Source: a virus
Lineage: Duplodnaviria > Caudoviricetes
DNA length: 64,000 bases
Virus record (IMG/VR): IMGVR_UViG_3300028832_000114
Location: 40,465 to 104,464 of that record
Direction: 5' to 3' (one strand)
Shown one piece after another: positions 2 through 60,065 of the stretch (the stretch's first letter is position 1; each line of letters opens with the position of its first letter). Position numbers and translations under genes: made by a program. The notes beneath the pieces were generated by a model, which made no database searches, was not told the DNA's origin, and was given only the letters and a program-made list of their open reading frames with translations.

Positions 2-721
2 CAAACAATGATGTTAGCGTTCTTATCAAATGTTAATGAAGCACATATTATATATAATAAATATGAGAACGATGAATTTGAACGCGTTATGCATGCGGCA
101 AATCTTATTAAAAACTCACCGCTTCATATAAAGAGATTACCTGACTTCAGTTTGCAAGATATTGAAAATGCAATAAAATATGGTATTCACGAATGGGGTA
201 TTAGATATGTATTCTTTGATTATCTACATACATCATTAAAAATCTTAGGTGAAGTATCATCTAAGGCAGGAATAAAGGGTTTAAGAGAAGATAATGTTCT
301 CTTTATGATAGCAATAAGATTAAAAGATTTGTGTAATGAATATGGTGTCTTTATTATGACATCAACACAGTTAAATGCAGAGTATACAACAGCACAACAA
401 TATGACCAAAACTTATTGCGTGGTGCAAAATCTATTGCAGATAAGATTGACTACGGTGCGATTATGCTACAAACTAGTCAAGAAGATAAAGAGGCATTAA
501 AGCCAATATTAGTTAAGCAAGGCTTCCCTGAACCAATTATTAAAATGTCTGTTTATAAGAATAGACGAGGACAATATAAAGACATATTATTATGGTGTAA
601 AGCAGATAGGGGTACTTGTAGAATAGAACCTATGTTTGCTACAACATATCAATATGAACTTGTTGATTTACCTGATTTAAAAATTAAGATAAATCCTAGT
701 ATGTCAGCAAGTGCATTTTAG
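2..721 (+). CDS. dnaB: Replicative DnaB-like helicase, C-terminal part (5' truncated by window)
   Basis: Motifs YVFFDYLH, TSTQLN, LRGAKSIADKID and VYKNRRG; directly upstream of the primase; ends TAG. Confidence 0.85.
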   Translation, partial: QTMMLAFLSNVNEAHIIYNKYENDEFERVMHAANLIKNSPLHIKRLPDFSLQDIENAIKYGIHEWGIRYVFFDYLHTSLKILGEVSSKAGIKGLREDNVLFMIAIRLKDLCNEYGVFIMTSTQLNAEYTTAQQYDQNLLRGAKSIADKIDYGAIMLQTSQEDKEALKPILVKQGFPEPIIKMSVYKNRRGQYKDILLWCKADRGTCRIEPMFATTYQYELVDLPDLKIKINPSMSASAF

Positions 722-738
722 GAAAGGAGAGTGCGGCA

Positions 739-1839
739 ATGGATGATAAAGAACAATTAGAGCAAATAAAAAATAATTTATCTATTGACCAGATATTTGA
801 TTTGCTTATATCTTTAGGTGCGGATCCTGTACTTAAAGATGATATAATCATGTGCCGTACAATCTGTCATGGCGGTGATAGTCATAAATTATACTATTAT
901 GATAACACAAAACTATTCCGCTGTTATACAGAATGTAGTGATACCTTCGATGTATTTCAACTCGTGGTTAAAGTACAATCGACCGGCGGCCGCACATTCT
1001 CATTACCGAAAGCTGTCAACTATATAATTAATTATTTTAATTTAAGCGTAGAAACTAAAAATTTTCCTGATGATAAGGATAAACTATCTGATTGGCAAAT
1101 TTTATACAGGTATGGCAAAAATTTAAAAGAAGAGGATAGCGAAAGAAAAATTGAGATAAAGTTTTATGATGATAAGATTTTATCATTCTTACCGCGTCCC
1201 CGCATTTTACCATGGGAGGCTGAAGGGATTAGTAAGGAAGTTATGAATTATCATAATATATGTTATAACCCTTCGTCTCAAGCAATAGTAATTCCTCACT
1301 ATGATGTTGAGGGTAGATTAGTGGGAATCAGAGAAAGAACTCTTATAAAAGAGAATGAGATCTATGGTAAATATAGACCTATGTATTTGAATAAACAAAT
1401 GTATAATCACCCGCTAGGATTTAATCTATATAATCTTAATTATAGTAAAGAAAATATAAAGCAAACTAAAAAAGCAATTATATTTGAAGGTGAAAAAAGT
1501 TGTTTATTATTTCCTAGTTATTTTGGACAAGAGAATGATATATCTGTGGCTGTATGCGGCAGCTCGTTATCTAGTTATCAAGTTCAACTATTATTAGATT
1601 TAGGAATTGAAGAAATGATTATTGCTTTTGATAAACAGTTTCAACAACTTGGTGACAAAGAGCATCAAGGTTGGGTTAAAAAATTAAAAGATATTAATAA
1701 AAAATATAGTAAATATATAAAAATTAGTTATATTTTTGACAAAGAAAATCTTTTAGGTTATAAGGATTCTCCTATCGACCGAGGTAAGGAGGTATTCTTA
1801 GAATTATTTAATAAAAGATTTAGTTTGGAGGAGGAATAA
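739..1839 (+). CDS. dnaG: DNA primase (Zn-binding N-terminus plus TOPRIM)
   Basis: CRTICH...CYTEC Zn motif, IIFEGEKS and IAFDK TOPRIM motifs; GGAG RBS. Confidence 0.85.
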   Translation: MDDKEQLEQIKNNLSIDQIFDLLISLGADPVLKDDIIMCRTICHGGDSHKLYYYDNTKLFRCYTECSDTFDVFQLVVKVQSTGGRTFSLPKAVNYIINYFNLSVETKNFPDDKDKLSDWQILYRYGKNLKEEDSERKIEIKFYDDKILSFLPRPRILPWEAEGISKEVMNYHNICYNPSSQAIVIPHYDVEGRLVGIRERTLIKENEIYGKYRPMYLNKQMYNHPLGFNLYNLNYSKENIKQTKKAIIFEGEKSCLLFPSYFGQENDISVAVCGSSLSSYQVQLLLDLGIEEMIIAFDKQFQQLGDKEHQGWVKKLKDINKKYSKYIKISYIFDKENLLGYKDSPIDRGKEVFLELFNKRFSLEEE

Positions 1840-1843
1840 AAAT

Positions 1844-2053
1844 ATGAACGATAAACTCGAGTTATGAATAAAAACTTGAGACAACCCTACGTTTACGTTC
1901 TTTGGTTGAGTAACCGAGGCGGGACAATATTCCGCTTTAAGTCAGCTTGATGAAAATCAAGTTAAAGAAGCTATTATTATAGCTCGTGGAGCCAACGACC
2001 AAATACGTATGGTTAATTATCGAGACTATGAAAACAAAGGCAAGGTGAGATAA
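1844..2053 (+). CDS. Hypothetical 69-aa protein (3 in-frame TGA=Trp)
   Basis: GGAGGA RBS; with TGA=W reads MNDKLELWIKTWDNPTFTFFGW...KGKVR-TAA and fills the dnaG-recJ gap. Confidence 0.7.
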
Positions 2054-2054
2054 A

Positions 2055-3860
2055 ATGAAATATAAATTAATTAAAGAAGTCGATCCAGCCCTAAGTCCTA
2101 TTCAGCAAATATTGTTGAATAGGGGTATTAAGTTAAGTGATATGCATCATTACTTAAATACAACAGACGCAGATATTTTGGACGCGGAGATGCTCGGTTC
2201 TGAGAGCATCAAAGCGGCCGCTGCCGCATTAATTTTAGCGATAAATAATAATTCAAAAACATTAGTATTGGTAGATTGCGATTGCGATGGTTATACATCT
2301 GCCGCAATACTTATAAATTACTTATATGATTTATTCCCTACTTTTGTAACAAATAATTTAAAATATTATTTACACGAAGATAAAACACATGGTTTATCAG
2401 ATTGTATAGATTATATAGAAAAAAATGATTTTAAATTAATTATTATCCCTGATGCTGCAAGTAATGATTATGAGTATCATCACAAACTAAAAGAAGAGGG
2501 TCGTACAATTATTATTCTAGACCACCATGAAGCACCAATGGTATCTAAAGATGCTATTGTGCTTAATAATCAATTATCAAATTATCCAAATAAACAATTA
2601 TCAGGAGCTGGTGTCGTATGGCAGTTTTGTCGTTATTTAGATAAGATACGTGGTGGACATACAGCAGATGAATATATAGATTTAGCCGCATTAGGAAATT
2701 GCGGCGACATGATGAGTTTACGCTCAATCGAGACTAAACATATTATAACCAAGGGTTTCCGCAACGAAAATATAAAGAACCCATTTATATATGGTATGGC
2801 TGAAAAGAACGCATACTCATTAGGAAATAAAATAACCCCAATAGGTGCAGCATTTTATATAGTTCCTTTTGTTAACTCAATGGTTAGAAGTGGAACTCTT
2901 GAAGAAAAAGAAATCTTATTTAAATCAATGCTTAAAAACGAAGCATTTAAAATGATATTATCTAATAAGCGTGGACATAAATTAGGTGAAGAAGAAAAAT
3001 TAGTTGACCAAGCGTTAAGAACTGCGACCAATGTAAAAAGTCGTCAAACAAGAGAACAAGATAAAGGTATGGCTTTAGTAGAAGAGCAGATAGAAAAAAA
3101 TAATATGATGCAACATAAAGTATTAATTTTCTTATTAGAACCAGGACAAATTGATCCTAATATTGCGGGATTGATAGCTAATAAAATAATGGCTAAATAT
3201 CAAAGACCCGTATTAATGCTAACAAAAGTAAAAGTATTAAATCAAAATATGATATTAACATCTAATCCACCACAACCTTATTATGATACTTATTACAGGG
3301 GTAGTGCGCGTGGATACTCTAAATCAGGAATTGAAAATTTTAAAGATATATGTCAAGAAACCGGTTTGGTAGAATACGCAGAAGGACATCAAAATGCTTT
3401 TGGTATTAGTATTTTATCATCTTATATTGATAGGTTTATAGAATTAACAGATGAAGCATTAAAAGATTTACAAAGCGAACCTTTATATTATGTTGATTAT
3501 ATTTTCAAAGGGGTTGATGTTCAACCCAATACAATTTTAGATATAGCCAATCTAAGTGATATATGGGGACAAGATATGGATGAAAGTTTAATTTGTATTG
3601 AAAACTTAAAGGTTGTAAAAGAAAATTTAACTTTGATGAGTCCTGATAAAAAGCCAACATTGAAAATAACTTTACCAAATAAGATTAGTTTAATTAAGTT
3701 TGGTAGTTCACAAGAAGAATATGATAAATTATTAACAGATGGATATATAGAATTAAATGTCGTGGGTAAATGTAATGCAAACGAATGAATGGGAAATATT
3801 ACACCACAAATACTTATTGAAGATTATGAAGTTATAGGACAAAGTAAATATAATTTTTAG
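2055..3860 (+). CDS. recJ: RecJ-like single-stranded DNA exonuclease (DHH family)
   Basis: DCDCDG, LDHH, RGSARG and GHQNAFG motifs; TGA at 3786 falls in the C-terminal N-E-W-x-G motif; true stop TAG at 3858-3860. Confidence 0.9.
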
Positions 3861-3889
3861 TTGATAAATATTTAAAAATATAATATAAT
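3861..3889 (+). promoter_or_regulatory. Sigma70/SigA-type promoter
   Basis: TTGATA-N17-TATAAT upstream of the helicase gene. Confidence 0.75.
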
Positions 3890-3912
3890 ATAAATGAAAG
3901 TGAGGGCAGCAG

Positions 3913-5115
3913 ATGATTCAATTAAACGATAAACAACTTGAAGGTTTAAATCTTGCAGTAGCCAGATATAGAGATGGTGAAAAGACTACTATTATATCAG
4001 GTTATGCGGGAACTGGAAAGTCAACCTTAGTTAAATTTATTATTGCCGCCCTAAATAATGACGGTATTGATCCAGATAAAGATGTTGTATATACATCGTT
4101 CACTGGTAAAGCAACTCAAGTATTACAAAAAAAAGGAAATAAAAATGTTAGTACATTGCACAAACTATTATATGAGTATTTTCCTAGAGCAGATGGCACA
4201 TTCTTTAGGAAACCAGTATTAGATATACCATATAAAATTGTTATTGTAGATGAATGTAGTATGGTGCCTAAAGAATTATTAATGCAACTTGCAAAATATA
4301 AAGTTCATATAATTTGTTTAGGAGATCCAGGCCAATTGCCGCCAATAAATAAAGATGAAGATAATCATTTACTTGACAATCCACACGTATTTCTAAATGA
4401 GATTATGCGTCAAGAAGAACAAAGTGAAATAATAAAACTTACTATGGATGTCAGAGCAGGAAAACCTTTAAATCATTTTATTGGAAAAGAAGTTCAAATA
4501 TTAGATAAAGATGAGCTTACAACAGGTATGTTAATGTGGGCAGACCAAATTATTTGTTCTACCAATGCAACAAGAATAGCATTAAATAAACAAATGAGGG
4601 CTTTATTAGGTCGCTGTGATAATCCTGAAGATGGAGATAAAGTAATTTGTCTTCGTAATTATTGAGATATATTAAGCGAAGATAAATCACCACTTGTAAA
4701 TGGAACAATTGGAACATTAAAAAATAGTTTTGAAAGTTTCTTTAAATTACCTGGATATATTACAAATTATAGAATATCACAGATACCAACTGTTCTTGCA
4801 ACTTTTGCATCAGATGATGGTATAACTACATTTAATAATTTAACAATGGATAAAAAAATGATTTTAGAGGGTGAACCAACATTAACTTCTAAAGAAAATT
4901 TTAAATTAAGTAAAAATAAAAAATATGTAAATAGTATTCCATTAAGTTTTACTTATGGATATGCCATTACTTGCCACAAAGCACAAGGTAGTGAATGGGA
5001 TAATGTACTTGTTATTGAAGAAGGCTTTCCTTTTGATAAACAAGAACATATTAAATGATTATATACAGCCGCAACTAGGGCTGCTAAAAAACTAGTTATA
5101 ATAAGAAAGATATAG
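3913..5115 (+). CDS. RecD/Dda-like SF1B helicase (2 in-frame TGA=Trp)
   Basis: GYAGTGKS Walker A, VDECSM, GDPGQLPP, YAITCHKAQGSEW, and K-W(TGA)-LYTAATRA motif VI; joins ORFs 3913-4665 and 4846-5058 in one frame. Confidence 0.9.
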
Positions 5116-5127
5116 GAGGAATAATTA

Positions 5128-5418
5128 ATGAATAATAAGTATACAGTGCAAGGAGTTATGAATGACAGATGAGTTATTTGGTATAAAGATTTAAAGAAAA
5201 AAGGTAATAAAATAGGTGTTTATAAAATAATTGATTTAAATGATGGCAAAAAGACAGCAAGATTTGCAGTAAGATATAAACCAAGAGAGAATCAAACTCA
5301 AGAAGTTTCAGATTCATTAATTATATCTAACTGTATTGCAAATTTTTATAAACATTCTTACACAAATCCAAGAGTAAGATCTAGGGGCGGAAGACGCAGT
5401 TCATTCGTTTCAGGATAG
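5128..5418 (+). CDS. Hypothetical 96-aa basic protein (1 TGA)
   Basis: GGAGGA RBS; open with TGA=W to TAG at 5416-5418. Confidence 0.65.
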
Positions 5419-5426
5419 GCGGCCGC

Positions 5427-5894
5427 ATGAAACTTAGGTTATCTTACTTTTATCAAATAAGAAATTTTAAACCTAATATGATACCAATGTCAACTGCAAT
5501 GTCAGATCCAGCCTGGTATCATGATTTTAAAGACTCAACTCATATCTTCACAGATAAACGAGGAATATTAAATGGACTTAGGTTACTCCCTATTATAGTT
5601 CAAAATGCAAATGGTGAAGTTCACTGTCCATGCGAACATAGAGATGCAACTAGATGTCCACTAGCTCATGATTATGAGGCGGCTCTTGAAAAAGTAGACC
5701 TCCCTAAATTAATGAAAGGCGTAAAATCATTTTGTGATGATTACTGCCAACAAAATAAAATTAAAGAAGAGCCTATTGCAGTATTAATGGTATATGAAGC
5801 ACCTAATAATCCTTGCAGTGAAAGATATAGTTTATTAAAATATTTTAATTCACACGGAATTGAATGTAAAGAACTAGACTACCCTATAGAGTAG
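5427..5894 (+). CDS. Hypothetical protein, DUF488-like
   Basis: N-terminal SYF and C-terminal LMVYE..NNPCSER resemble the DUF488 LxCxE...CHR motif. Confidence 0.45.
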   Translation: MKLRLSYFYQIRNFKPNMIPMSTAMSDPAWYHDFKDSTHIFTDKRGILNGLRLLPIIVQNANGEVHCPCEHRDATRCPLAHDYEAALEKVDLPKLMKGVKSFCDDYCQQNKIKEEPIAVLMVYEAPNNPCSERYSLLKYFNSHGIECKELDYPIE

Positions 5895-5899
5895 TCTAT

Positions 5900-5930
5900 T
5901 TGATTTTTATTTAATTTTTTAGTATAATAT
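5900..5930 (+). promoter_or_regulatory. Possible SigA-type promoter for dnaE
   Basis: TTGATT, then TATATAAT starting 17 nt later. Confidence 0.5.
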
Positions 5931-5960
5931 AAATATATAGGTATGAAAGGAAGGGAAGAT

Positions 5961-8900
5961 ATGAGTAATAGATTTGAAGTTCATAGTCATACAATGTATA
6001 GTAATTTAAGACTTTTAGATAGTATTAACCGTCCGAAAGATTTAATTAATAAAGCAATTGAATTAGGATTAGCTGGTATAGCAATCACAGATCATGAGTG
6101 TATAAGTTCTCATCCTGAAATAAATTTTTATCAAACAGAAGTTCAAAAAGAACATCCTGATTTTAAAATAGCATTAGGAAATGAAATATATTTAACTGAC
6201 ACAAGAGATAGTGGTCAAAGATATTATCACTTTATTTTAATAGCAAAAAATAAAATAGGTCATCGCGCATTAAGAGAATTATCTTCAAGAGCGTGGATGA
6301 ATAGTTATTGGAATCGAGGTCTTGAACGTGTTCCAACATTAAAAGATGATTTAGAAGAAATATTAAAAAAGTATCCGAATAGTTTAATTGGAACAACAGC
6401 ATGTTTAGGTGGGGAATTAAGTATTAATACATTAGAATTAATAAAATGTGAAAAAACTAATGATAAAGATGGTGCGGCAGTTGCACATAATAATATAGTA
6501 AAATTTTTGTTATGGTGCAAAAATGTATTTGGAGATAATAATTTTTATATTGAATGTGCTCCTGGTACAAGTCGTGAACAAATCTTAGTTAATAAAAGAT
6601 TTCCCGCAATTGCAAAAGCATTTGGATTAAAAATGGTTATTGGAACAGATGCACATTATCTTAAAAAAGAAGATAGATATGTTCATAAAGCATATCTTAA
6701 TAGTAAGTTTGGAGAGCGTGAAGTAGATGAGTTCTATGAATTTGCATATCTTCAAAATAACGAAGAAATAATAGAACATTTAAAAGCATCTGATTTTAGT
6801 AATGAATTTATAGATGAAATGTTTCAAAATAGTTATGAAATATATGCAAAGATAGAAAATTATAATTTAGCTCATGCGCAAACAATCCCTCATGTTGAAG
6901 TAGAAGATTATCCTATTATAGAGATTGAATCAGAAGAATTTTTAGATAAGTATCCAGTTTTATCTGATATGTTTCAATCAAATGATCAAATAGAAAGATA
7001 TTGGGTAAACAAATGTTCAAATAAATTAAGAAAATTGGGTTTAAGAAATGAAACTTATCTAAGTAGATTAGAAGAAGAGGCGGATATTAAAAGAACAATT
7101 AGTGAAAAATTAGGAACTAATATGTTTGCATATCCAGTTACACTTCAACATTATGTAGATTTATTTTGGAATTGTGGAAGTATAGTAGGAGCTGGTCGTG
7201 GTTCAAGTTGTTCAGGTTTAAATCATTATTTATTAGGTATAACTCAACTTGATCCGATACAATGGAATCTTCCATTCTGGAGATATTTAAATAAAGAGCG
7301 TGTTGAGTTAGGTGATATAGATTTAGATTTATGTCCAAGTAAGCGTCCTAAGATTTTAAATGAAATTAAAAAAGAAAGAGGACAAAATTTTAAGGCGGAA
7401 ATAGATGATTTAAGTAGAAAGAATCTTGGTTGTACATTAATAGCAACATTTGGTACAGAGGGTACAAGATCAACAATATTAACTGCATGTCGTGGTTATA
7501 GGAATGAAGAGTATCCAGATGGTATAGATGTTGATACAGCACAATATTTATCATCATTAATCCCAAGTGAACGTGGGTTCTTATGGCCGCTTAATGATGT
7601 TATTAATGGTGATGAAGAAAAAGGTAGAAAGCCAATTAAAACATTTATAAATGAAGTAAATATGTTTCCTGGATTATTAGATATAATGTCTGGTATTGAA
7701 GGTTTAGTAAATAAAAGAAGTAGTCATGCTTCAGGAGTTATCTTATTTGATGAAGATCCATATGAGTTTGGTGCATTTATGAGAACTCCAAAAGGAGAAA
7801 TTATCACAGCGTATGATTTGCATATGTGTGAAGCATGTGGTATGACGAAATATGACTTCTTAGTAACAGAAGTTCAAGATAAATTAACAGAAGCAATTAA
7901 AATGTTGCAAGATTATGGAGAAATTGAAAGTGATTTAACATTAAGAGAAGTATATGATAAATATTTTCACCCAAATGTTCTTCCTATTGAAGATAATAAA
8001 TATTGGAAAGTATTGCAAGATAATAGTGTTTTAAATATCTTTCAGTTTGATAGTGATGTTGGAGGTCAAGCCGCAAAAAAGATTAAGCCAACAAATATAA
8101 TGGAAATGGCGGATGCAAATGGTTTGATGAGATTAATGACTGCGGAAAAAGGTCAAGAAACTCCAATGGAAAAATATATAAGATTTAAGAATAATATAAA
8201 TTTATGGTATAGAGAAATGGACTCATATGGTCTAACAAAAGAAGAACAAAAAGTATTAGAGCCATATTTTAAGAGTTCACATGGTGTTCCTCCAAGCCAA
8301 GAGCAGTTAATGAGAATGTTAATGGATGAAAAGATTTGTAACTTTACTCTTGCGGAAGCGAATGCCGCACGTAAGATAGTTGGTAAGAAACAAATGAATA
8401 AGATCCCCGCATTAAGACAACAGGTATTAGATCAAGCGTCAAGTCCATGTATGGGTAATTATATATGGAAGTGTGGTGTTGGTCCGCAGATGGGATATTC
8501 ATTTAGTATCATTCACGCGTTAGCATATAGTTTCATTGGTTTTCAAACAATGTATATAGCGACAAGATGGAATCCGATATATTGGAACACAGCGTGTTTA
8601 ATAGTTAATAGCGGAAGTCTTGAAGAAGATAGTGATTTTGAAGAAGACGAGGATGGATATATAGTTGAGAAAAAAGAAAAATCAACAGATTATAGTAAAA
8701 TAGCAAAAGCGTTAGGAGATATAATTAATAAAGGAATTAAAGTTAGTTTAGTTGATATAAATAGGTCAGATTATAGTTTTCAACCAGATGTAGATAATAA
8801 TGAAATATTATTTGGTATGAAAGCATTAAATAATGTTGGCGGTCCGATTATTGAACAAATAAAAGCAAGTCGTCCTTATGCGGGAATCGCAGATTTTATG

Positions 8901-9914: not shown

Positions 9915-9922
9915 GAGAATAT

Positions 9923-10276
9923 ATGAAAAAAATAATTGAACATGGTTTTATGAGTTATATGGAAACTACCTGTCCATACTGCGGTTGTAAGTTTTCATTT
10001 GAATGGGAAGATGTAATTAGCCCAACATGAGGTCCTACTTGAAGATATGATAATACAAATATTACAGTTAGTGGTTGTTGTATTACTACAGGAACGGCTC
10101 AAAATTATGAAATTTTCTGCCCTGAATGCAAAAGAAAATTTCCTATTTTAAACTGGTCTTTCTCATATCCTAGAGGTAATTGTCCTTTTACTTATAGTGG
10201 AGAATGGAAAAATACATCTGTAACAAAATGTGACACAGAATGTACGTGTCATAAGTGTTCAGACAAAAATGATTAA
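9923..10276 (+). CDS. Cys-rich zinc-ribbon protein (2 TGA)
   Basis: GGAG RBS; CPYC...CPEC pair plus C-terminal CxxxCxCxxC; open only with TGA=W. Confidence 0.7.
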
Positions 10277-10350
10277 TCATATTAAGCAAAAATTAAAATT
10301 GTCATAGAGGTTAAAATCCTTGAAATAATTTAAATACTAAGGAGGAGACT

Positions 10351-13096: not shown

Positions 13097-13250
13097 TTTT
13101 TTAAAAATATTTTTTCCAGCTCTTATGGTAACTGGAGCAGTTGGTAGCTGCGTTGTAAATCTTGTTACAGATAAATCTAATTGGCCTGTAACATTGCAAT
13201 GGTTTGGAGCTGCATTGCTATATACAGCATTATTATTTAGAAACAAATAA
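13089..13250 (+). CDS. Small 53-aa membrane protein (two hydrophobic segments)
   Basis: GGAG RBS; MINFLKIFFPALMVTGAVGSCVVNLV...WFGAALLYTALLFRNK. Confidence 0.6.
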   Translation: MINFLKIFFPALMVTGAVGSCVVNLVTDKSNWPVTLQWFGAALLYTALLFRNK

Positions 13251-13255
13251 AAGGT

Positions 13256-13299: not shown

Positions 13300-13320
13300 C
13301 TTATTTTTCAGGGGGTAATC

Positions 13321-14253: not shown

Positions 14254-14258
14254 TTTTT

Positions 14259-49100: not shown

Positions 49101-51309
49101 TATCAGTTCCATCAAATATTTTTTGTCCGTTTTCTCATAATTGAATTCTAAATCATTTTTTTGGAGTAGCAACACCATAATTCATAATACCATTTAAAAC
49201 CATTGGATAGTCATCAAAATTACTATTATTTGTATTTGGAACTATTTTACATATAATGTCACTACCATTAGTTCCAGGTTCACCCTGTTTTACAAAAATA
49301 AAATTAGTTTTTGCTTCTAAAGTTAAATTTTTATATTTAACTGTTAATTTAATATCATTATTTGTTTTATTAATATTATATTCATCCACAATTCCATATC
49401 TCAAGCTTAAATTATTAGAACTTTCTCCAACTAATAAAGTATTTTCAGTTGGAACTTCCCATTGAACATCACATTCTTCTAAAACAATGTCACTTAAAAG
49501 ATAACCTAAATTATCTGTAATTGTAAATGTTAATGGCTCAATAGTAATTGGTCTTTCTAATGAACTATTAACAGGTGAAACACCTAAATCATCATAAGTA
49601 AATACTTGAGTTCCATTAATAATATTTAAAACATATTCACCTTCAGTCAATAGTCTATTGTGAAGAGTAATTGCGGCAGTACCTACAACTAAATCTTGTT
49701 TTTTAACCAAACATTTAAAAGTTGTATAATTAGTTACTTGACGCATATCTATTTTAATAAGTTTATTTTTTTCAACCCTTTGAATATTATCATATTTATC
49801 TACAATTACTTGAAGCGCGTCCAAGTCTGCTTGAACGGCCGCAGGCATTATTTCTTCAGTTGCAATCTTTGCTTGTATTAAGTCACGATCTGCAATCGCT
49901 TCATTATATTCAATATTTTCATCATAAGTTTCTAATAATTCAGTTACGGTACCATTAACATCAACCATGCTTCATGAATAAGTATAATCTTCTAAATTTT
50001 CTTCTTTATCAACATAGCAAGTCAATGTTGGTCTTCCATTATCAAAATAAAATTTTGTACCTAAACTACTAATAATACTAAGTTCTGTGTTACCTTCATA
50101 AACATAAATACATATTTCATCTTTCGCAAGTATCTCTTCTCTTTTAACAACAATACATTTAATATTAGTACAACTACTATTACAAAAACTTCTTGTAATA
50201 ACACATTTATCATTTTGAGTTAATCACATTTTAGTTTGTTCATCAACGATATTATATTCATTAATACATTCCCACCCCTCACCAGCATAATTTATATAAT
50301 TAACATCATTAATTTTTACTTCATTGTTTTCTCTAAATCAGTAATATTGAATTTCTGTATTATTAACAATCTTACCATCGTTTCTTAGTACACTTTCAAT
50401 AGTAACAGTATCGGTAGGTAAACTAAATTCATTAAAATATCCTTTACCAGGTTTACTTAACACCAATGTATATCCATTACTATTAGATAAATCTCTTAAT
50501 CCATATAATTCAAAATCTTTAATAAAAATATCATTTTTTAATAAATTATCATTAGTAATAATATAAGGAAAGCCCTTTTCAAAAATGTAAATAGATTTAA
50601 CCTGAATAAAATTTTCATTACTAATTTCAAAAATATCATATTGTTTAGTATAATCTTTTTGATCATATGGAGAACCTGTCATCCTGTTAACATCAACAAC
50701 AAAATCTTTTTGAATAACATCACCGGTAATATTATCCGTAAATTCCATAGTGACACCAAATCCAAAATTACCACTTTTTTGTTGTTCTACTGGTAAATCG
50801 GTTTTAAACTTAGCTCCACAAAGTATCATTCTTGTTTCAGCAATAGATTCAGAAAAAACTATCGGGTCAAAATTAATATTATTAACATTATTTTCTACAT
50901 CATATAAATATAATTTATTATTATCTTTGTAAGAACATAATTCAAATTCTTGTATTGCGGAAATTGAATTTCCAACCTCTATTTCATATTGTTCATCTTC
51001 TTCCTTAATAATATTTCTTTCTATTGCTTCTTTATCAACAGTATCAAGAATTGTTTTTGTTTTACTAAAATCATTATTAGGAATTGTAATGTATACTAAA
51101 GTTCCTTCTGGATACTTTATATCAATATTACTAGAATATGCTTCAATTTCACTATCTTGGTATTTTATTTTATATTTTCCAGTTTCCGCATCTTCAAGTG
51201 AAATAATTGTCCCTTGAATTGTTCTATCATAACCAGCTTTAGACACTGCATTATCTACCATAGTTTCAATAGCATCAAGAATTTGATTTTCATAATTAAC
51301 ACTACTCAT
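46132..51309 (-). CDS. Large tail tip/central fibre protein, 1,725 aa
   Basis: Five ORF fragments (50338, 49153, 48637, 48142, 47659) share one frame; C-terminal Gly/Thr-rich G.I.ATSG.I..W.I beta-repeats. Confidence 0.8.
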
Positions 51310-51344
51310 TGAAACACTCTCCTTTTCTCTCTTCTTTTATTCTT

Positions 51345-51392
51345 CTAAAATAATATAAAAAATTATTAAATTATATTTTCTTTATTGGGCCA
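51345..51392 (-). promoter_or_regulatory. Putative phage late promoter
   Basis: TGGCCCAATA...TTTTTTATATTA. Confidence 0.55.
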
Positions 51393-51395
51393 AAT

Positions 51396-51434
51396 AAAAA
51401 AAATAGGTAGTTATTATTTTAACTACCTATTTTC
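51396..51434 (-). terminator. Terminator overlapping the tape measure stop
   Basis: AAATAGGTAGTTA / TAACTACCTATTT plus T-run. Confidence 0.75.
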
Positions 51435-54400
51435 CATTACCCTTTGTGCAGCAACATTAACTAAATTATTTAACGCCTCTTCAATTTCTCTTGCATTACG
51501 AACATTAGGGAATGATGCGTCAATGTGAACATCTTGTTCTAATAATCCATTGCCGCCACTAATATTTGTATAACCAGAAGCACTTGCATTTGCTAATTTA
51601 GATAATACTGTACTACCAAGTGAATATGTTAATCCTCTCATTACTGAAATAGCATTTAACATATTTTTAGTATCTGATTGATTTAAAACAAGTTCTTTTT
51701 GATGTAGAGTTGCTAAACGACCTTGACCACTTCAATTGCCAGTATAACCACCAGTATCATATCCAGAAATATCTTTAATTTTAATCCATCCAACTCATGA
51801 ACTACTCTTACTAAAATCAGGACTTGTTCCAACATGAACTCAACCCTTACTCTTATAATTTGTATTTTGGATATATAATTTTGAACCTTTTTTATAATAT
51901 GGATTTTTTATGTAACCGCTTCCAACAGATGTTGCATAACTAGAATTAATTGTAACTTTATCTCCAACATCAACTTGTCCATTGCCTTGAGGTTCTACTT
52001 TTGTAGGTTCTTGTTTTTCTTCAAGAGTTTCATTATTATTTTCATTATTGCCTTGATTACCTTGTTGACCATTTTTTTCTTCATCTTCAATTTCATCTAT
52101 TTGTTTATTCTTTTCTTTATGTTCATATTCATAAGCTGCGGTTGCCGCATTTTTTGCAGCCTCTTCTGCATCTTTATATTGTTTTGTTAATTTAACAACT
52201 TCATCATAAACCTTTTTAACATATTTTAATTCTTTTTTATAACAGTCAATTAAATCTTTATTATCTTTTACTAAAGTTTCTGTTTTAGTAATATCTTCAT
52301 CAAGACCATTTTTAATTTCTTCAAATGTTTTGCCAGATGATTTTTCTAAAGCCGCTATATCAGATGAATATGTTTTTTGAGCTTTAGTAATTTTTTGTCA
52401 ACTTTTTTTAGTAACAGTAGCAAAACCACTTTCTCCATTGAACGTATCGTTCATATTGTTTGTATTATCAACAATATTTTGTGCAGCTTCTTGAAAACTT
52501 TGAGACATTTCATTAGTTTTACTTTTTACAGAATTAGATGTTTTAGTAAAGGCTAAATCAATTGCCGCAATTCCACCTTCTCCATCTTCTCCTGTTAAGA
52601 AGTAATCAAGCATATCTGAAACACCAGTTTTTCAAGTTGGCACCATTTCACGTAAAATTAAATCTTTTTCAGTATTGGTTAAATTTGCAAAAGCCTCTTC
52701 AGACAAATCATTTAAATTTTTTCAATCCTCAAAAGCAGATTCTTGTAAATTATATTTTGAATCTAAATAATCTTGTTCAATTTGAACCATTAACTCATTA
52801 TATTGTTCTTGGATTAATTTTTCTTTTTCTGCACGTTTTTCTGGATCTGTAATCATTGCAGCTTCTGCCATTTTTTGCTGATATTCACTATAAATGCTGT
52901 AAGCATCATTTAATACTTGATTATATCTTTCTTTATCAAAATTATATAATGAATTAGTTAATTGATCAACTTGATCTTGCGCTTTTTGAATTTCATCTTG
53001 ATTAGCAGTATACTGATAAGTATAATTACCTTGGCTATCTCTTCTTAATCTCATTTGAGATTTATTTTGACGAGCATCTTCAAGGGCTAATCTAGCAACT
53101 TCAAGTTCATATAATTTATTTGCTCTATCTAAATCATATTGAGTTAATCTATCTTTCTCTTCTAACGTTGCTAATTGCTCATCCATAATTTTTTTCAATT
53201 TTTGTTGAGCTTTAGTATTATCAGATTTATTAATAGCATCTGTATATTTTTTCTCTAATTCTCGAATGCCATAAGTTGCATTGATTGTATCAAGATATCT
53301 GTCTGCATTTTTATTAATTAGTTCTCATTGTTCATTTACAAAATCCAATCCTTTTCCACCCGTTACTTCATTATTTAAAGCTTTAAAAATTCCATTAATA
53401 GCATTTTGAAATTTATCAACTGCATTTTGCAAACTTTCTTCTAATGTTTTGTTAAGATCTTGGGCTGCAGTTTTTCAATTTTCAGTAACAGCTTCAAGTC
53501 TCTCTTCTGCATCTAAATACTCATCTTGAACTTCTTTTCATTCTGTACTATTTTCTTCTAATGTACTTAATTCTTTTTGTAAATTATCAACTCTTGTTTG
53601 TTCTGCGCTCATTTGTTCTGCTCAGAATTGTTTTTCTTGTCTTTGAAAATCTAATGTATCATTATAATTTTCTTGCTGTCTTGTATAAAATTGGTCTAAC
53701 TCTTCATATGAGTCTTCTCCATAAACTAATTGAATAATTTTTTTATCATGTTCTATTAAATCATTTAATAAATTATAATTATCAATTTGTTTATCAAAAG
53801 CTTCTTGAGATGCAGCTATTTGATCTAATACCGCTTGATGTAAATCTCTTTCAACTTGTTCAGCATCTTCAATAGATTGCATTAAAGCAGTATATTTATC
53901 TTTAAGTTCATCTAATGCTTTAGCTCGATCATTAACAGTAGTACCATCTGCCGCCTTAGCGCTATAAACGGAACTAAGACCACCTTCATCCATAATTTTT
54001 AATTCTCTAAGAATTGATTGTACTTGTGATGTTTGAGCTTGAATATCTCCACGACCATTTGCCGCATAATATGTTTGAAGATCTGCTTTTCTAGCTTTAG
54101 CATTACCTAAAATATCGCTTTCTCTAATACCTTGAATATTTTTCTTTTTTCATGCATTTCAATCTCTTGTTGCTTGATTCATATCAAGAGTAATTTCTAA
54201 TTTTAAATTAAATTTTTGAATTTGAATTTCTATTTGTTTTTCTAATGCATCTAATCTACTTTGTTCTAATTCTGGAATTAAACTAACTGTAACTTCATCA
54301 TATCTATCAATATCAGATTTAAATTTTTCATATTTTTCTTTTGCTTTACTTAAAATTTCATCATCGTCTCATTTTTCTTGCTGAGCTTTAGTTAAACCAT

Positions 54401-57400
54401 TATATTTATCTACTAATGCATTATATTCAGCTTCTGCAGCATCTAATGCTTCTTTATAATTAGAAACTGTTTTATCACTGTTAAACACAACACCCCGTGC
54501 AGCTAATTTTTTAGCTAACTCATCTTGTTCGCCCTCAGCAATTTTTAATTTTTTAGTATAATTATTAACTTGAGTATTTAATAAACTCCATTGTTGATTT
54601 AAATTTTTTAATAAATTACCACCAACAAGTTTATTTTGTTGAGATTCTAATTTTTTTAATGAATTATCAATTTTTGTAATCTGAGTATTAATTTTATGAT
54701 ATCTATCTACTTCATCATCTATATGTTTTTCTTTTTTAGGTTTTGATTTTGATCCGCCGCCAGATTTTCCTTTTCCTGTGTCTGTTGGTGGTTTATATTT
54801 AAAATTACCAACATTTGCACCTTTAAACTTAGTATTACCAGCATTAATTACAGGAATATTGATTTGTCCCTGAACATCTGTAGTTGCTTTATTAGTAAAT
54901 GTTTTTGTTTCTCCTGTCGTTGGGTCTGTATATTGGTATGTTGCGGTTTCAGAGTTAACCTCAGTAAGAGTTGCTGGAACCGTATCAATTGTAGGATTAT
55001 AACCAATACCAGCTAAAATTTCATTAGCCTGTTCTTTAGTAATATCAAAATTTCTTAATAAAATATTTAATTTTTCTGCTAGTTGTGGATCAATTTCAGT
55101 TCCAATTTGTATCTTTTCAAGATCTAATCCCTGAATATAATTTACCAAATCATTAACTTCATTTGGTAATTTATCTTTTCAATCTGTTTTTAAATTAACA
55201 ATAAAATCTTTTGTTGCAGCTTTTTGTAAATCATCTAAAACCTTTATATCACCACTTGCTAATTTTTGTATTTCTTTTAAATGATCTCTAACAAAATCTT
55301 CTGATATATCTTTTCCTAAAATATCTTTTACTGCGGTAATAGCTTTACCAACCTGTTCCATTTCATCTGGAGTAAGATTTTGTCTTTTTTGTCATTTCTT
55401 AAGACTATCTTCTCCATCTTTTAATGCCGTATTTAAAGTATCTAATTTTTTACTTAATTTATAATGATGTTCTGCTGCGGTAATAGCAAATGAATCATTT
55501 TCTTTTAAAGCTTTGCTATTTTTTATTAATTCTTGAGTATATTTATAAAAACCATTAGCATCAGCTTCAATTTCTTTAGCTTTTGCATTAGATTGAGTTC
55601 TAAAACTTTGATTTTGTAAATCTTTTAATTCTCCAGCTGTACTTGTTTTTGAGCCTTTAATAGCATTAAGAAATTCTTTCATTGATGGAACACCATCAGT
55701 TTCATCAATTTTAATACCCAAATCTTTTAATGATTGTTCTAAATTTTGATCTGCATCAATAATTTCTTTAATTTTATTAATATCTTCAGGAGTTAAGCTA
55801 TCAACATCACGAGATAAAATTTTATCTGCCAAATCAGAATCAATATTGTATTTTTGACTAACTTTTCCTCTTTCTTCATTTGCTCTTGTAATAATTTCTT
55901 CTTGAGAAACAATTTCTTTATCCATTTCTTCAAGAGCTTTTTGTCATCTTTCTATATGATCTGATTGATATAAATCAAATTGTCCTCCTTGTTGTCTATA
56001 CGCAGCAATAGAAGCCGCCATTTCATCTGCGGTATATCGTTGACCATTATATTCATACTGTCTTTCTTCGTCGCCATAGTCAACATTAGTAAATTTTGCT
56101 TGAGAAAATTCTTCTCCTCGAGACTCAAGAAACATTTTCATAAATGTTATTGCGTCTACATCAAACTCTTCACTGATTGTATCGACTCCAGATCTCTCAG
56201 CTTCTCTAACAGTTTCTTGAATCTTTGGTAATTTACCTGCTTGTTCTCCTTGTCATAGTACTGATCCATAGCGACCGCCCTGTTCTTTAACTTTATCTGG
56301 TACTATAATCTTATTAATATTATTAACATTAGTATCTATACTTTTTAAAGTCTGCGCAATATTTTGAAAAGTTCCCTGTTGATCTTTAAGAGTTCTTTCT
56401 ATAGTCGAAGTATAATAATTTTTATTACTTCCACCATTTTCATTAGCATATTTTTCTGCAATTTGAGAAACTAAAGCTTCATAATCTTTTTTAGATAAAC
56501 CTGTTTGTCCTAATTTTCTTTGCTCTTCTTCAGTAAGATACGTTGACCAGATTTTAGTATTAGAATTTCTACTATCATATCCAGTGTTTTTAGATCGTTC
56601 TGCAACAGAGATACGTACAGTTTCTAAAGCTCTTTCTCTATCTTTTCCATATAAAGTTAATTGATTAATATATTTAGCATATTTAGTATTATCTAATGCA
56701 GCTTCTTTTTTTTCTATATATTCATTTAATTTTTCTTCATCAAAAGATAAATAATTTCCAGAACTTTTTATAATACCTTCTATATTTAATAAATCTGGAT
56801 ATTTATCTAAAATAGATTGTACTTCTTCATTAACCTTTTTTAATTGCTCATTCCATTCTGAAGAATAAGTAATACATCCATCTAAAGTATTTTTAGCATC
56901 TTTGAAAGAATCCCAAGATTGTTTTAAATCATTTAATGAAGTCGCTAATTCATCTGCGCTTTTAGTTAAATTTTCTTGTGCCTGTTGTAAAGTTTTATAT
57001 TCTCGTTCATTCTTTGTTACGGATTGATAAATTGCATAAGCAGCAACACCAATCGCTGCGCCAATAGCAATATATGGAGCTAATGCCAATAACGTTTGTC
57101 CTATTGCTGCTGTTAAACCTTTAAATGTTGCAGCAGTACTAATATTAGCTGTAGTTAATTTTCCTTGTGAAGCTGCATATTCAACATTCGTAACAACACC
57201 ATTTTGTTTTACTTTATTATTAAGCGCAACCGCCGCAGTTTCTTTTGCTTTTGTTTTTGCTGCCTTTTTTGCTGCCGCTTCTTCAATATAATAATTAACC
57301 GCTATTTTTTTTGCAGTATCAGCAATAACACCAATATTTTCTTTAATTAATTTCATGCTATTGCCAAACATAGCTATACTTGTTGCTAAAGCACTTATAA

Positions 57401-60065
57401 TTTGAATTATTTTTTCTCCTGCAGATAAACTATCATTTTTAAAAATGTTTCAAATATTTACAAAAGAATTTAAAGCAGTTGAAGCTTGTCCAACAGCAGA
57501 CGCTAATTTTACTCATTGTTCAGTATTAATCGTTTGTTTTGCTACATCAACAGCCCCTTTAATTTTTTGACTTGTATTATCTATATCATTATTTAATTTC
57601 TTTGTTGCTTTTTCATGTTCTTTACTTGCACTTTCTGAAATTTTTTGAGTAGCAGTATTAATTTGTTGTTGAGCTTTGCTTGTTGCATCTTTTAAATCTT
57701 TAACTAAAGGATCATAAAATCCAGTAGTAATATTTTTATTAAAACTAGTTCTAGCTTTTTTATTTGATGAGCTTTTAACTTTATAAATATAATTAGCTTC
57801 ATTACTCAATTGTTCTCTTAAAGCTTTAACTCTATTAAGTATGTTATTTTTTTCTTCTTCTGTTAATGCTCCAGATAAATTATGGGCAAAAGTTTCTGCT
57901 TGATCTGCGGCTGCTAGCATATTTTTTCTGATATTTTCAATATCATCTTTCATGACATCGCCCTTATTTTTTGCTTCTCCTGTTTGTTTATCTTTTTGTC
58001 ATTTTTTTGAGCCTCAGTTTTCTTTTTTTGTATCATAATCTTCTTGCATTCTTTTTTGAGCTTTTTCAACAAGAGCTAAATATTGTTCGTATCCACCAAT
58101 AAGTTTATTTTGTTCATCTACAGAACCTTTTATATTTTCAGTTAATTTTTTTTGTGCATTTGCAGCTGCTTCAATAGTTGCATTTTCATCTAAATCTGTT
58201 GCTTTATCTATATTTTGAACACTTTTAATATAATCAACTGCACTATTAAGTTCTTCTTCTTGTTGAGCTCTTTGATTTAAAAGTTCTTCTAATTGAGTTA
58301 TTCATTGTGTAATTTGATTAATAGAATCTTGATCCATTTTTGTCATAACAGATTGAAATTCTGCTATAACATCTTTTAATTCTTTTCACACTGGATCATT
58401 TTGAATATCTTTATTTTCATTTAATAATTTTAAATTGTCAATTGCTGTTTCTGCATCCATTGCAGCTTGTTTTGTCTTTTGTAAATTTCTAATTGTTGTA
58501 GTAAGACCAGTAGCAATTTGATTGCTAAATACTTGAGTTCCAATAGAACCAAGCATTAATAATGCATTTCCGCCACCACCAATACCTTCAACAAAATTAG
58601 ATACTAATTTAACAATATTTGTTAAACTATCTATTAAAGAATTGATACCTTTATTATCAATAAAACTACTCATTAATCGTTCTGTTGCAGTTGATAATTG
58701 AGTTAAATGAGCTTCTGTACTTTCTAAATAAATATCTTGTTGTTTTTGTAAAGTACCAAGTGAACCACTAGCAGTAGAAATATTTGTTTGAACTTTATCT
58801 CAATTATCAAACAATGCTACTAATTGAGTATATTGTCTTGTTCCAGCAACATTTTCTGCCAAAGCAACTTTTTGAGCTTGAGATAATGTTTGTCATTTAG
58901 CACCCATTTCATTCAAAATGGTATCCATTTTCTTTAATTCGCCATATTGATCTTTTATATTAATACCAACTTTTTGTAATGCTTCTGCATAAGTACCTAA
59001 AGTAGTTCCATCTTCTAATGTTTTTCCAAGCTCTAAATCTTGAATACGAGCAAAAATTGTTTTAAATGCAGTACCAACAGTATCTGCGCTTTGACGAGTT
59101 TGAGCAACTACAGTAGCTAATGCGGCAGTAGCATATTCATAACTTAAACCTACTGTTTTAGCTACAGAAGCAAACTTTTCTAACCCCGTTGCGATTTCCT
59201 CAGAACTTGCAGCTGTACTAGCTCCCAATGCAGTAATAACATCGGCGAAATACTCTAATGATTTACTACCAGTATCAAAATTATTTCAAATAGCAGTCAT
59301 GTAATCAGAAACTTCTTGTGCAGATGCTCCTAATACATTAGCCATTTTTACCGTAACTTCTGCTCTTGCACTAGCTTCTTCCGTTCCTAAACCTTGTTGA
59401 AAATAAATTAAAGAAGCTTTTGCAAAATCTAATGTACTTGCTCCTAAAGATTGGGCTGCTCTATTTGCTTGAATTGCAAATTTTTCCATTTCTTGAGCAG
59501 ATTGTCCACTAACAATTCTAATATCATTTAATGCTGAATCTAAATTTTTAGCATAACCTCAAGCTTTTTGAAGAGAACCTGCTAATGTATTATAAACACT
59601 TGATGAAATTCCCCATTGTACAGTATTTTTTAATGATGTCGCCATCTTATCTAATAATTTATGAGATTCTTTCATCTGAATATTCATAGTTGTTAAACCA
59701 GTTGCTAAACTTCTAAATGCAGTTGTTCCTGCTGGACCCAAGCTTGTTAAATCTTTATATAATTTAGTTAAATCTACTCCTTTTAATGACTGACTAAATT
59801 TAGTAATATTAGTTGTTCCTAAGTTAGCGTTAAAAGCTTTTTCTAATGCGGTTTGAACAAGTGCAGCTTCTTTTTGAATTTCAATTAATTCTTTACGAGA
59901 TTGTGCTAATGATTTATTTTTTGACGTATCAAAAGTTGCTTTTTGATATTGTTCTGTTGTCATAGCAGAAATTTCTTGTAAACTCTTTTTTAAAGTTTGT
60001 AAACTTTGATTATCAATAGAAAAACCAACACTATATTCAATTTCTCCATATTTTTGACCAGCCAT
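51423..60065 (-). CDS. Tail tape measure protein, 2,880 aa
   Basis: Fourteen code-11 fragments share one frame, separated by TGA; TP901-like core (TRQSADTVGTAFKTIFARI), long helical heptads, C-terminal YDTGGYTG/LHQKELVLN. Confidence 0.9.

Follow-up and report, generated by a model that had tools for sequence, protein, structure and literature searches.

Uneven use of TGA in phages of the kind described here was already published in 2021-22, and in the model of Borges et al. (bioRxiv 10.1101/2021.08.26.457843) translation is in the standard code early and is then switched to another code. In the same study, phages of recoded hosts carry the recoded codon in about 90% of their genes or open reading frames (ORFs), and standard-code relatives are more than 90% identical in nucleotide sequence to recoded phages. 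The TAG-to-Gln crAss-like and Lak phages (Peters et al. 2022, PMC9523058) offer a parallel, with the reassigned stop mainly in late genes, standard-code hosts and a phage-encoded suppressor tRNA; for this code, code 15, proteomic proof exists. They differ from the phage studied here in stop codon and amino acid, in their Bacteroidota hosts and in belonging to unrelated lineages. In-frame TGA also encodes an amino acid in Mycoplasma and Spiroplasma phages and in the code-25 phages of Absconditabacteria, but there the code is shared with a host that lacks RF2 and nearly all genes (about 90%) use TGA. Unlike in those phages, half of the ORFs here avoid TGA under selection, TGA aligns with Trp and not Gly, and wall hydrolases are present.

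The phage contig IMGVR_UViG_3300028832_000114 is 104 kb long, about 70% complete and 30% GC. The 64-kb stretch of it analyzed here (the window) recurs across many studies, in runs that sequenced the bovine gut and rumen. The phage is probably of the same kind as the Agate-like phages of Borges et al. It resembles them in genome size (the four relatives that form our comparison set are 120-136 kb at 80-91% completeness), in its occurrence in the guts of cattle and other animals, in a predicted standard-code Firmicutes host, and in TGA as Trp with a phage-encoded suppressor tRNA. The same model of early standard-code translation followed by a switch has been proposed for them. The clade sensu Borges et al. 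is delimited on a tree of the large terminase (TerL), with at least 95% bootstrap support; the contig is without TerL, which is present in the relatives. Unlike in the Agate phages, the glycosyltransferase cassette here is recoded as heavily as the tail genes, the head proteins of the relatives avoid TGA, and one of two peptidoglycan hydrolases is without TGA. The work of Borges and colleagues reportedly appeared later in Nature Microbiology.

Four blocks can be distinguished: an early tRNA/sigma block (A), a replication block (B), the glycosyltransferase cassette with RuvC (C) and a tail block (D). The features of the window are as follows, in window coordinates, with names in the replication block from PHROG/Pfam annotation.

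2..20005, plus strand: distal part of block B, replication and nucleotide metabolism, TGA-poor; the block starts at genome 26 kb
2-721, plus strand: DnaB C-terminus
739-1839, plus strand: primase
1986-3860, plus strand: RecJ
3913-5115, plus strand: Dda/RecD-like helicase
5943-9914, plus strand: DnaE, DNA polymerase III alpha, 1323 aa, 0 TGA/19 TGG (phrog_405, E = 4.6e-208)
10351-12606, plus strand: NrdD
12599-13096, plus strand: NrdG
13321-14253, plus strand: phosphoesterase/exonuclease
14953-16182, plus strand: methyltransferase-like protein
16163-16738, plus strand: Tdk
16728-17351, plus strand: ORF with only an RHH...QR motif resembling the ThyX motif
17403-17888, plus strand: Def
17863-18378, plus strand: DUF5662 protein
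19571-20005, plus strand: dUTPase
20219..26548, plus strand: six-gene sugar-nucleotide and glycosyltransferase cassette (20219-21145, 21093-21716, 21676-22530, 22467-24857, 24866-25435 and 25448-26548), TGA-rich and without a sigma-A-type promoter (PHROG)
22467-24857, plus strand: multi-glycosyltransferase fusion within the cassette, 14 TGA/1 TGG (PHROG)
26634..27152, plus strand: RuvC-like Holliday junction resolvase (phrog_827/159)
27233..27256, no strand: terminator-like hairpin, bidirectional, where the plus-strand block and the tail block converge
27265..63989, minus strand: tail and virion block (D), TGA 72% of Trp codons (PHROG)
27265-32488, minus strand: 952-aa and 787-aa proteins of block D
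38519-39337, minus strand: fibre-like protein (PHROG)
46132-51309, minus strand: 1725-aa protein of block D, 16 TGA/6 TGG
51423-60065, minus strand: tape measure, 27 TGA/6 TGG (PHROG)
62383-63330, minus strand: virion structural protein, 0 TGA/1 TGG (PHROG)

DnaE shares about 39% identity with its counterparts (YorL) in SPbeta and in Enterococcus phages. The ORF at 16728-17351 had been read as ThyX with an inactivating TGA at codon 16; it does contain three TGAs (codons 16, 40 and 61), but its identity as ThyX is not confirmed, as it has no Pfam, PHROG or PDB match.

Several lines of evidence bear on the meaning of TGA. Called with code 4, the sequence gives tiled long ORFs, whereas with code 11 the late genes are fragmented; the tape measure is one 2880-aa ORF in code 4 and about ten ORFs of at least 100 aa in the code 11 listing. 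All three TGAs of RNase H fall at conserved Trp positions, and across the relatives the alignment partners of TGA are TGA (126), TGG (93), Tyr (22), Phe (11) and Gly (3). At NrdD W230, a TGA codon, the aligned residue is Phe. The alignments thus identify TGA as a Trp codon in this phage, as the sequence-only reading had proposed. At codons 278-279 of the phosphoesterase, a TGA-TGA pair was considered as a tandem stop; this was rejected, since the relatives have TGG-TGG there and the pair is therefore sense Trp-Trp. Recoding of TAG was likewise rejected: TAG is the terminator of 31 of 84 ORFs, and joining ORFs in frame across it succeeds no more often than chance predicts.

The two Trp codons are very unevenly distributed. 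Counting ORFs of at least 100 aa, block A has 9 TGA and 58 TGG (TGA share of Trp codons 13%), block B 29 and 88 (25%), block C 27 and 9 (75%) and block D 96 and 38 (72%). These differences are significant for A versus D (p = 1.5e-15), B versus D (p = 8e-14) and B versus C (p = 9e-8), and a permutation test confirms the heterogeneity (p = 5e-5). For every other A/G codon pair, 74-97% of the codons end in A, whichever the block. In total only 51% of ORFs contain TGA. The earlier per-gene counts were right and lie far beyond chance (DnaE, tape measure and the glycosyltransferase fusion as listed above), and a trend by functional class holds across the genome and the clade. That TGA use is graded, as had been suggested, is correct only in so far as it differs by class. 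TGA use changes by a step at window position ~20.2 kb, with heterogeneity from gene to gene, and does not follow a smooth gradient; within the replication block no positional gradient was found (Spearman rho = 0.09, p = 0.34), and DnaE differs from the remainder of block B (p = 0.003).

Primase (0 TGA/3 TGG), NrdG (0/3) and Def (0/2) are, like DnaE, TGG-only. DnaB is so only within the window; codon 246, which lies a little 5' of the window, is the single TGA of the complete gene. RecJ has two TGAs, one probably 5' of the true start, the RecD/Dda-like helicase two, NrdD one (codon 230), and RuvC two, at W18 (from a GTG start; W15 from an ATG start) and W114. The DnaE of one relative has six. 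Given one TGA in DnaB, three in RNase H, one or two each in RecJ and the helicase, and six in the DnaE of a relative, the boundary is leaky and lineage-specific. The proposal that the core replisome is made first, without read-through, was too strong given DnaB and RNase H.

Comparison with the four relatives, in which the TGA-poor/TGA-rich pattern is conserved, bears on how this distribution is maintained. In blocks A and B, TGG is kept at 86-90% of conserved Trp sites, whereas G-ending Lys, Glu and Gln codons, which serve as a control, are kept at only 24-54% (p from 1e-13 to 1e-24). For blocks C and D the corresponding figures are only 17-59% for TGG of a relative and 12-21% for the control codons, and TGG and TGA exchange freely in the tail block. 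The retention of TGG far above that of silent G-ending codons indicates that TGA is selected against in the early and replication genes, about 54 early and middle genes. Neutral AT drift cannot account for the spared TGG codons, as the sequence-only reading had argued.

Nor is dnaE a recent import, an origin that had been raised as an alternative. Of 32 relatives at 64-93% identity, 24 are likewise without TGA in this gene, and the trend extends across the genome and the clade. More broadly, the early and replication modules, or dnaE alone, could be newly imported from an AT-rich standard-code phage and not yet have accumulated TGA. In its favor, phage genomes are mosaic, the same A-ending bias with TGG only would be expected of modules from an AT-rich code-11 donor, and Borges et al. 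report standard-code relatives that are nearly identical to recoded phages. Such an origin is nonetheless highly improbable. The same modules, order and TGG retention are found in relatives at 50-90% protein identity, in which only 24-35% of G-ending codons at silent A/G sites persist as against 86-90% of TGG, and the ortholog table already points to early and late modules that are congruent and similarly diverged.

As host, a low-GC bacterium of the Bacillota with a cell wall, in which UGA is a stop codon, is the most likely. The phage encodes a PG_binding_1 protein and an NlpC/P60 protein, peptidoglycan hydrolases that imply a walled host, and the bacterial NrdD proteins nearest to its own belong to Erysipelotrichaceae, Bacilli and Clostridia. 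The release factor 2 gene prfB is present in all 13 candidate host genomes: five of five metagenome-assembled genomes (MAGs) with related phage contigs (phage contigs binned into MAGs being weak host evidence), five of five genomes of the order of those MAGs, and the three Bacilli with the tRNA-Trp most similar to the phage tRNA. A search of 505 Bacilli genomes turned up a single full-length copy of the tRNA, and the genome that has it also has prfB. These hydrolases and prfB make a code-4 host unlikely, in line with the earlier premise of a standard-code host. As to the host species, a BLAST search of window positions 1-20000 against the five MAGs with related phage contigs gave no convincing CRISPR spacer, returning phage contigs and short 25-26-nt near-threshold matches only. 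A feedback in which the suppressor shuts off RF2 by decoding the in-frame UGA of a host prfB that relies on frameshifting is not supported, because the prfB match spans 2 to 353 without an internal stop in most candidate genomes.

Were the host itself to use code 4, the phage would simply share its UGA = Trp assignment and no switch would take place. The low GC, the near-minimal tRNA set (one anticodon per amino acid) and the phage tmRNA tag of the relatives, which ends in ...SFA and which we take to resemble mollicute tags, are compatible with such a host. However, the strong purifying selection against TGA in the early and middle genes would then be without cause, TGA use would not be expected to be so class-biased, and the share of ORFs with TGA is well below that reported for phages of recoded hosts (Borges et al.). 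Moreover, the bacteria known to use code 4 are either Mycoplasmatales, which have no wall, or endosymbionts of insects, and in RF39 UGA is a stop codon. Together with the hydrolases and the prfB survey, this makes a code-4 host very improbable.

Read-through is supplied by the phage, as had been proposed, to the extent that it carries its own tRNA(UCA). This gene adjoins tRNA-Trp(CCA), lies 3' of a host-type TTGACT-N17-TATAAT promoter and is common to the contig and all four relatives. A tRNA(CUA) is also encoded here and in one relative. Neither an RF2 inhibitor nor a release factor or TrpRS was found in the ~70% complete contig; Rfam gave no match to an HDV-like or theta ribozyme beside the suppressor tRNA, or to a group I intron in the insert by which tRNA(UCA) is interrupted in one of the relatives. 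The tRNA and the promoters are located as follows.

Genome 18093-18188, outside the window, minus strand: tRNA(UCA) (Rfam tRNA model, 61.6 bits)
Window 3861..3889, plus strand: sigma-A-type promoter TTGATA-N17-TATAAT upstream of the helicase
Window, ends at 5928 (DnaE), 17368 (Def) and 19284, plus strand: similar sigma-A-type promoters (promoter scan)
Window 60889, minus strand: boundary of the -10 hexamer of a sigma-A-type promoter in block D (promoter scan)

Co-oriented intergenic sigma-A-type promoters number 33 in the TGA-poor 60 kb (A and B) and one in the TGA-rich 44 kb (C and D), a contrast that is only borderline after normalizing to intergenic length (binomial p = 0.052). The anticorrelation between promoters and TGA is repeated in the relatives. 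From the promoters and gene function only, we infer which genes are expressed early and which late. In late genes, T follows 15% of sense TGA and 26% of TGG codons, orthologues not being independent counts, and real stops favour T at the next position; this avoidance of T is suggestive of competition with RF2.

Given the above, we consider a mutation-selection balance, in a phage with its own tRNA(UCA) and a standard-code Bacillota host, to be the best explanation, and a reasonably probable one when taken as a whole, including that the phage is siphovirus-like, AT-rich and of the virulent type and infects bacteria of the cattle gut or rumen. Under this scenario, AT-biased mutation would drive TGG to TGA throughout the genome, and purifying selection would clear TGA from those genes that host RNA polymerase transcribes via sigma-A-type promoters, which would need translation before the suppressor outcompetes release factor 2. 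The cleared genes would be the tRNA/sigma/RNA-repair block and most of the replisome, and also those for the high-copy head proteins of the relatives. TGA would be tolerated, and would drift to its neutral frequency, in late genes for low-copy products, namely the tape measure, the fibres, the remaining tail proteins and the glycosyltransferases. The outcome would be a translational lock atop a transcriptional programme. Proteins whose genes carry as many as 27 UGAs in frame would be completed only once per-codon read-through is well above 90%, a threshold likely set by tRNA accumulation against RF2.

In both the sequence-only reading and the model of Borges et al., the code switch is instead an adaptive timer. 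Under such an explanation, TGA would be positively selected in late and lysis genes, and the switch, not transcription, would time virion and lysis proteins and guard against premature or host-forced lysis. Beyond its agreement with the published model and its gene-family statistics, this is favored by the presence of at least one TGA in seven of seven genes of the glycosyltransferase/RuvC block and in 71% of tail-block genes, and by a putative endolysin (genome 19041-19862, with a strong RBS and two PG-binding repeats). The endolysin gene lies inside the early tRNA transcription region and has one TGA (codon 30) among 7 TGG, kept in the closest relative, and one early stop is exactly what a gate would need. 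However, the endolysin homologue of a more distant relative and the NlpC/P60 hydrolase both have 0 TGA. The TGA share in late genes (72-75%) is below the A-ending share of other A/G pairs (88-97%), and TGG/TGA turnover there looks near-neutral, so that nothing indicates that TGA is positively selected. As transcription already separates the late genes, and late head genes of the relatives avoid TGA, we think a timer of this kind rather unlikely, and the codon usage may be a consequence of the programme and not what sets it.

The head genes deserve separate mention. In the relatives, head core proteins have 1 TGA and 33 TGG versus 125 and 105 in tail genes (p = 2e-9), and these head genes are late by promoter class. 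Expression time is therefore not the sole variable, and protein dosage counts too. It is possible, and we suggest it only tentatively, that read-through in this clade is never complete and that TGA use is set by translation time and by the number of copies needed, early and high-copy head genes being kept TGA-free and low-copy virion proteins and glycosyltransferases being TGA-loaded. As far as we found, this dosage axis is not in the published model.

Phages that switch codes in mid-infection are among the few natural cases of two codes in one cytoplasm, and are also a source of orthogonal suppressor tRNAs. Annotation of such contigs needs code 4, as otherwise the tail genes and the glycosyltransferase cassette vanish. 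The window reveals no new principle but is a clean case. Its useful features are the silent-site control, which indicates that early-gene TGG is held by selection, and the map of 33 host-type promoters coincident with the TGA-poor region, analyses that we did not find in Borges et al., along with the TGA-avoiding head genes of the late promoter class in the relatives, which point to dosage as a second constraint. If the dosage reading is true, recoding would be, beyond its role as a timer, a built-in translational attenuator that helps set virion stoichiometry.

When TGA is read as tryptophan (code 4), the window is tiled with long ORFs, while with TGA as a stop (code 11) its right-hand 44 kb is fragmented. 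It covers bases 40465-104464 of one 104,464-bp virus contig, which has a GC content of 30%, an estimated completeness of 70% and no terminal repeat. Based on PHROG and Pfam searches, the contig can be divided into four blocks:

Genome 1-26 kb, minus strand: block A, with 24 tRNAs, tmRNA, ROOL RNA, a sigma factor, RNA ligase, phosphoesterases and two peptidoglycan-hydrolase-like proteins
Genome 26-60.7 kb (window 2-20005), plus strand: block B, with polynucleotide kinase, RNase H, topoisomerase II subunits, NAD-dependent ligase, a Sak4-like protein, DnaB, primase, RecJ, a Dda-like helicase, DnaE, NrdD/NrdG, Tdk, Def and dUTPase
Window 20219-27152: block C, a sugar/glycosyltransferase cassette of six genes, and RuvC
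Window 27233-27256: bidirectional terminator where blocks C and D converge
Window 27265-63989, minus strand: block D, tail genes, among them a tape measure of 2880 aa

No head module is on the studied contig; one is found in relatives, of which four contigs of 120-136 kb were taken from IMG/VR for comparison. The ORF at window 16728-17351, taken for ThyX in the sequence-only reading, contains the motif RHH...QR and is Cys-rich in its C-terminal half; the ThyX assignment was dropped, as searches of Pfam, PHROG and PDB gave no sequence match.

The per-gene counts of the sequence-only reading were all recovered to within one codon. In ORFs of at least 100 aa, TGA/TGG counts are 9/58 in block A, 29/88 in B, 27/9 in C and 96/38 in D (Fisher tests: A versus D, p = 1.5e-15; B versus D, p = 8e-14; B versus C, p = 9e-8; C versus D, not significant), with heterogeneity supported by a permutation test (p = 5e-5). 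DnaE (0/19) differs even from the remainder of block B (29/69, p = 0.003). Since the A/G codon pairs of Lys, Glu, Gln, Leu, Arg, Gly and Thr are 74-97% A-ending in all four blocks, base composition does not explain the TGG-rich blocks. The use of UGA had been described as graded; the differences between blocks and genes hold, but no smooth positional gradient exists within block B, and TGA use instead steps up at the B/C border and differs from gene to gene.

Comparison with related proteins shows that TGA codes for tryptophan in this phage. In RNase H, all three TGAs coincide with the GGW and W..W positions that are conserved in solved RNase HI structures, and the codons or residues opposite phage TGAs in the four relatives are TGA (126), TGG (93), Tyr (22), Phe (11) and Gly (3). 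An apparent tandem TGA-TGA at phosphoesterase codons 278-279 is TGG-TGG in one relative. At NrdD codon 230, also TGA, the aligned position holds Phe.

The sparing of TGG extends beyond the studied contig. A DnaE search of IMG/VR retrieved 36 related loci at 64-93% identity; among the 32 scored, DnaE lacks TGA in 24, has one in four, six in one lineage (two loci) and two or three in two loci scored on a partial ORF (~740 aa) only. When orthologues of the four relatives were paired with the studied genome, several families were TGA-free or nearly so across the five genomes, including a 597-aa early protein (TGA/TGG 0/46), ligase (0/45), topoisomerases (1/20 and 0/13) and phosphoesterases (0/30 and 0/18). 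The corresponding counts in late families are 64/21 for the tape measure, 97/62 for a 1725-aa protein, and 25/1 and 30/3 for glycosyltransferase genes.

As a silent-site control, conserved Lys/Glu/Gln sites with a G-ending codon in the relative were compared with conserved Trp sites with TGG. In blocks A and B the G-ending codons were kept at 54%, 35%, 27% and 24% of sites, falling with divergence, while TGG was kept at 88%, 86%, 87% and 90% (p from 1e-13 to 1e-24 against the control). In blocks C and D, TGG was kept at 17-59%, near the 12-21% of control codons. This contrast shows purifying selection on TGG in early and middle genes and almost free change in late genes. It rules out neutral AT drift as the cause, as the sequence-only reading had held, and likewise the idea that dnaE or the early modules were recently imported. 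Against the closest relative, block B has 13 sites with TGA here and TGG there and one reversed: TGA is creeping into the middle genes of the studied lineage. Another lineage independently gained TGA at 17 such sites, six of them in DnaE. Late genes show no TGA excess over the neutral expectation (72-75% versus 88-97%). The data locate selection against TGA and give no evidence of selection for it.

The promoter map is consistent with temporal classes and backs them independently, in support rather than proof. A scan for TTGnnn-N16-18-TATAAT (at least 10 of 12 matches), counting intergenic sites co-oriented with genes, found 19 sigma-A-type promoters in block A, 14 in B, none in C and one in D. 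The 33 sites in the early and replication 60 kb are near-identical (TTGATT, TTGATA or TTGAAA, N17, TATAAT). The spacer is 17 nt long in 31 of them, and sites in the opposite orientation number just two or three. The block B sites inside the window are:

Window 3861-3889: sigma-A-type promoter
Window 5900-5928: sigma-A-type promoter directly before DnaE
Window 17340-17368: sigma-A-type promoter
Window 19256-19284: sigma-A-type promoter

Once site numbers are scaled to the little intergenic DNA that the late blocks have, the contrast is only borderline (p = 0.052). All four relatives are TGA-poor where they are promoter-rich. Transcription of the late blocks presumably uses a phage sigma factor; block A encodes one, and a second sigma family adjoins the head genes of relatives. 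This family, phrog_5767, which is not on the studied contig, lies beside the terminase gene in the head modules of three relatives, G002, G004 and G005 (e.g. L045:14784-15848), and its genes carry TGA (1/2, 4/7 and 6/1).

Timing does not account for all of the pattern. Where relatives carry the head module, it is without sigma-A-type promoters, yet TGA/TGG is 1/33 in its core proteins (the portal, a capsid-like phrog_4088 protein and a 464-aa protein), versus 125/105 in the tail orthologues from those genomes (p = 2e-9). TGAs thus sit in low-copy long proteins, not high-copy ones, which fits incomplete read-through with a cost scaling with product amount. However, DnaE, ligase and the topoisomerases are low-copy yet TGA-free, so expression level alone is insufficient, and time and dosage both seem to act. 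The proposal that a standard-code replisome is made first is only approximately true, as DnaB codon 246 and three RNase H codons need read-through. The best candidate for a deliberate gate is a putative endolysin in the early tRNA region, with a strong ribosome-binding site, seven TGG and one TGA at codon 30 that is kept in the closest relative and missing in a distant one.

Read-through would rely on a suppressor tRNA encoded outside the window:

Genome 18093-18188, minus strand: tRNA(UCA), 96 nt, between tRNA-His and tRNA-Trp(CCA)

It is present in all four relatives, which also keep its extra arm, a further hairpin that resembles an anticodon arm and has the loop CUCCAAA (CCA). Because a TTGACT-N17-TATAAT promoter lies upstream of the tRNA, host RNA polymerase can probably make it as soon as infection begins. 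Neither a release factor nor a TrpRS gene was found on the ~70% complete contig. In relative G004 (L060:2986-3288), the one with most TGA in replication genes (DnaE 6/13), tRNA(UCA) is split by a ~207-nt insert exactly between anticodon positions 34 and 35. Like group I introns in tRNA-Leu(UAA), the insert has U before it and G at its end; an Rfam search found no matching family, and its fold z-score is -2.6. The tRNA array also holds a tmRNA (genome 13570-13988, minus strand; Rfam 89.9 bits), with tags ANKVKSLF...SFA in relatives, and a ROOL RNA (genome 11661-12265, minus strand; 174.5 bits). Speculatively, with the suppressor at work, the tmRNA could rescue ribosomes running past the UGA stops of host genes. 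An amber suppressor, tRNA(CUA) (genome 16294-16370, minus strand), occurs here and in relative G001; no evidence of TAG recoding was found, TAG terminating about a third of phage ORFs.

More than ten studies have metagenomes of bovine gut or rumen in which the stretch occurs. Its DnaE is ~39% identical to those of SPbeta-like Bacillus phage and Enterococcus phage, and the nearest bacterial NrdDs (64-68%) are from Erysipelotrichaceae, Bacilli and Clostridia metagenome-assembled genomes (MAGs). NrdD matches above 70% lie on phage-like contigs binned in MAGs, mostly labelled Bacilli or Clostridia and in a few cases otherwise (e.g. Methanobrevibacter). No CRISPR-spacer match (window 1-20000 against five MAGs with related phage contigs) or other direct tie to a host was obtained. 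On the combined evidence, the host itself is unlikely to read UGA as tryptophan. The gene for RF2, prfB, is in every candidate genome tested: all five of those MAGs, five further genomes from the order of one of them, and three Bacilli with small genomes (0.7-1.3 Mb), in which tRNA-Trp(CCA) shares 91-92% identity with the 3' part of the phage tRNA. Among small-genome Bacilli with RF2, chromosomal tRNA-Trp(CCA) matches the 3' part of tRNA(UCA) at 83-92%; the full-length two-hairpin tRNA has one copy among 505 Bacilli genomes, again in a genome with prfB. Furthermore, the phage encodes PG_binding_1 and NlpC/P60 proteins, whereas known bacteria with UGA as tryptophan are wall-less Mycoplasmatales or insect symbionts (in RF39, UGA is a stop). 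In late genes T follows 15% of sense TGA versus 26% of TGG (p = 0.0015), and real stops favour T as the next base; such avoidance is in the direction expected if RF2 competes. Related-phage contigs of 70-130 kb occur in public MAGs labelled Bacilli, Clostridia, Clostridium, Treponema, Bacteroidaceae and Methanobrevibacter (L072-L151). They are phage contamination of these MAGs, which can mislead both taxonomy and genetic-code calls.

A standard-code host with phage-induced read-through of later genes is also the model that Borges et al. (bioRxiv 10.1101/2021.08.26.457843) published for TGA-recoded 'Agate' phages, which are ~127 kb in size, come from cattle and other animals and are predicted to infect Firmicutes. 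The order proposed there is early standard-code translation, production of the suppressor tRNA and then late genes (bioRxiv 10.1101/2021.08.26.457843), the same as in the sequence-only reading. Since Borges et al. already propose it, the finding is a rediscovery of their model, probably in the same kind of phage. What the present analysis adds is the silent-site control, the map of promoters and the head genes that lack TGA.
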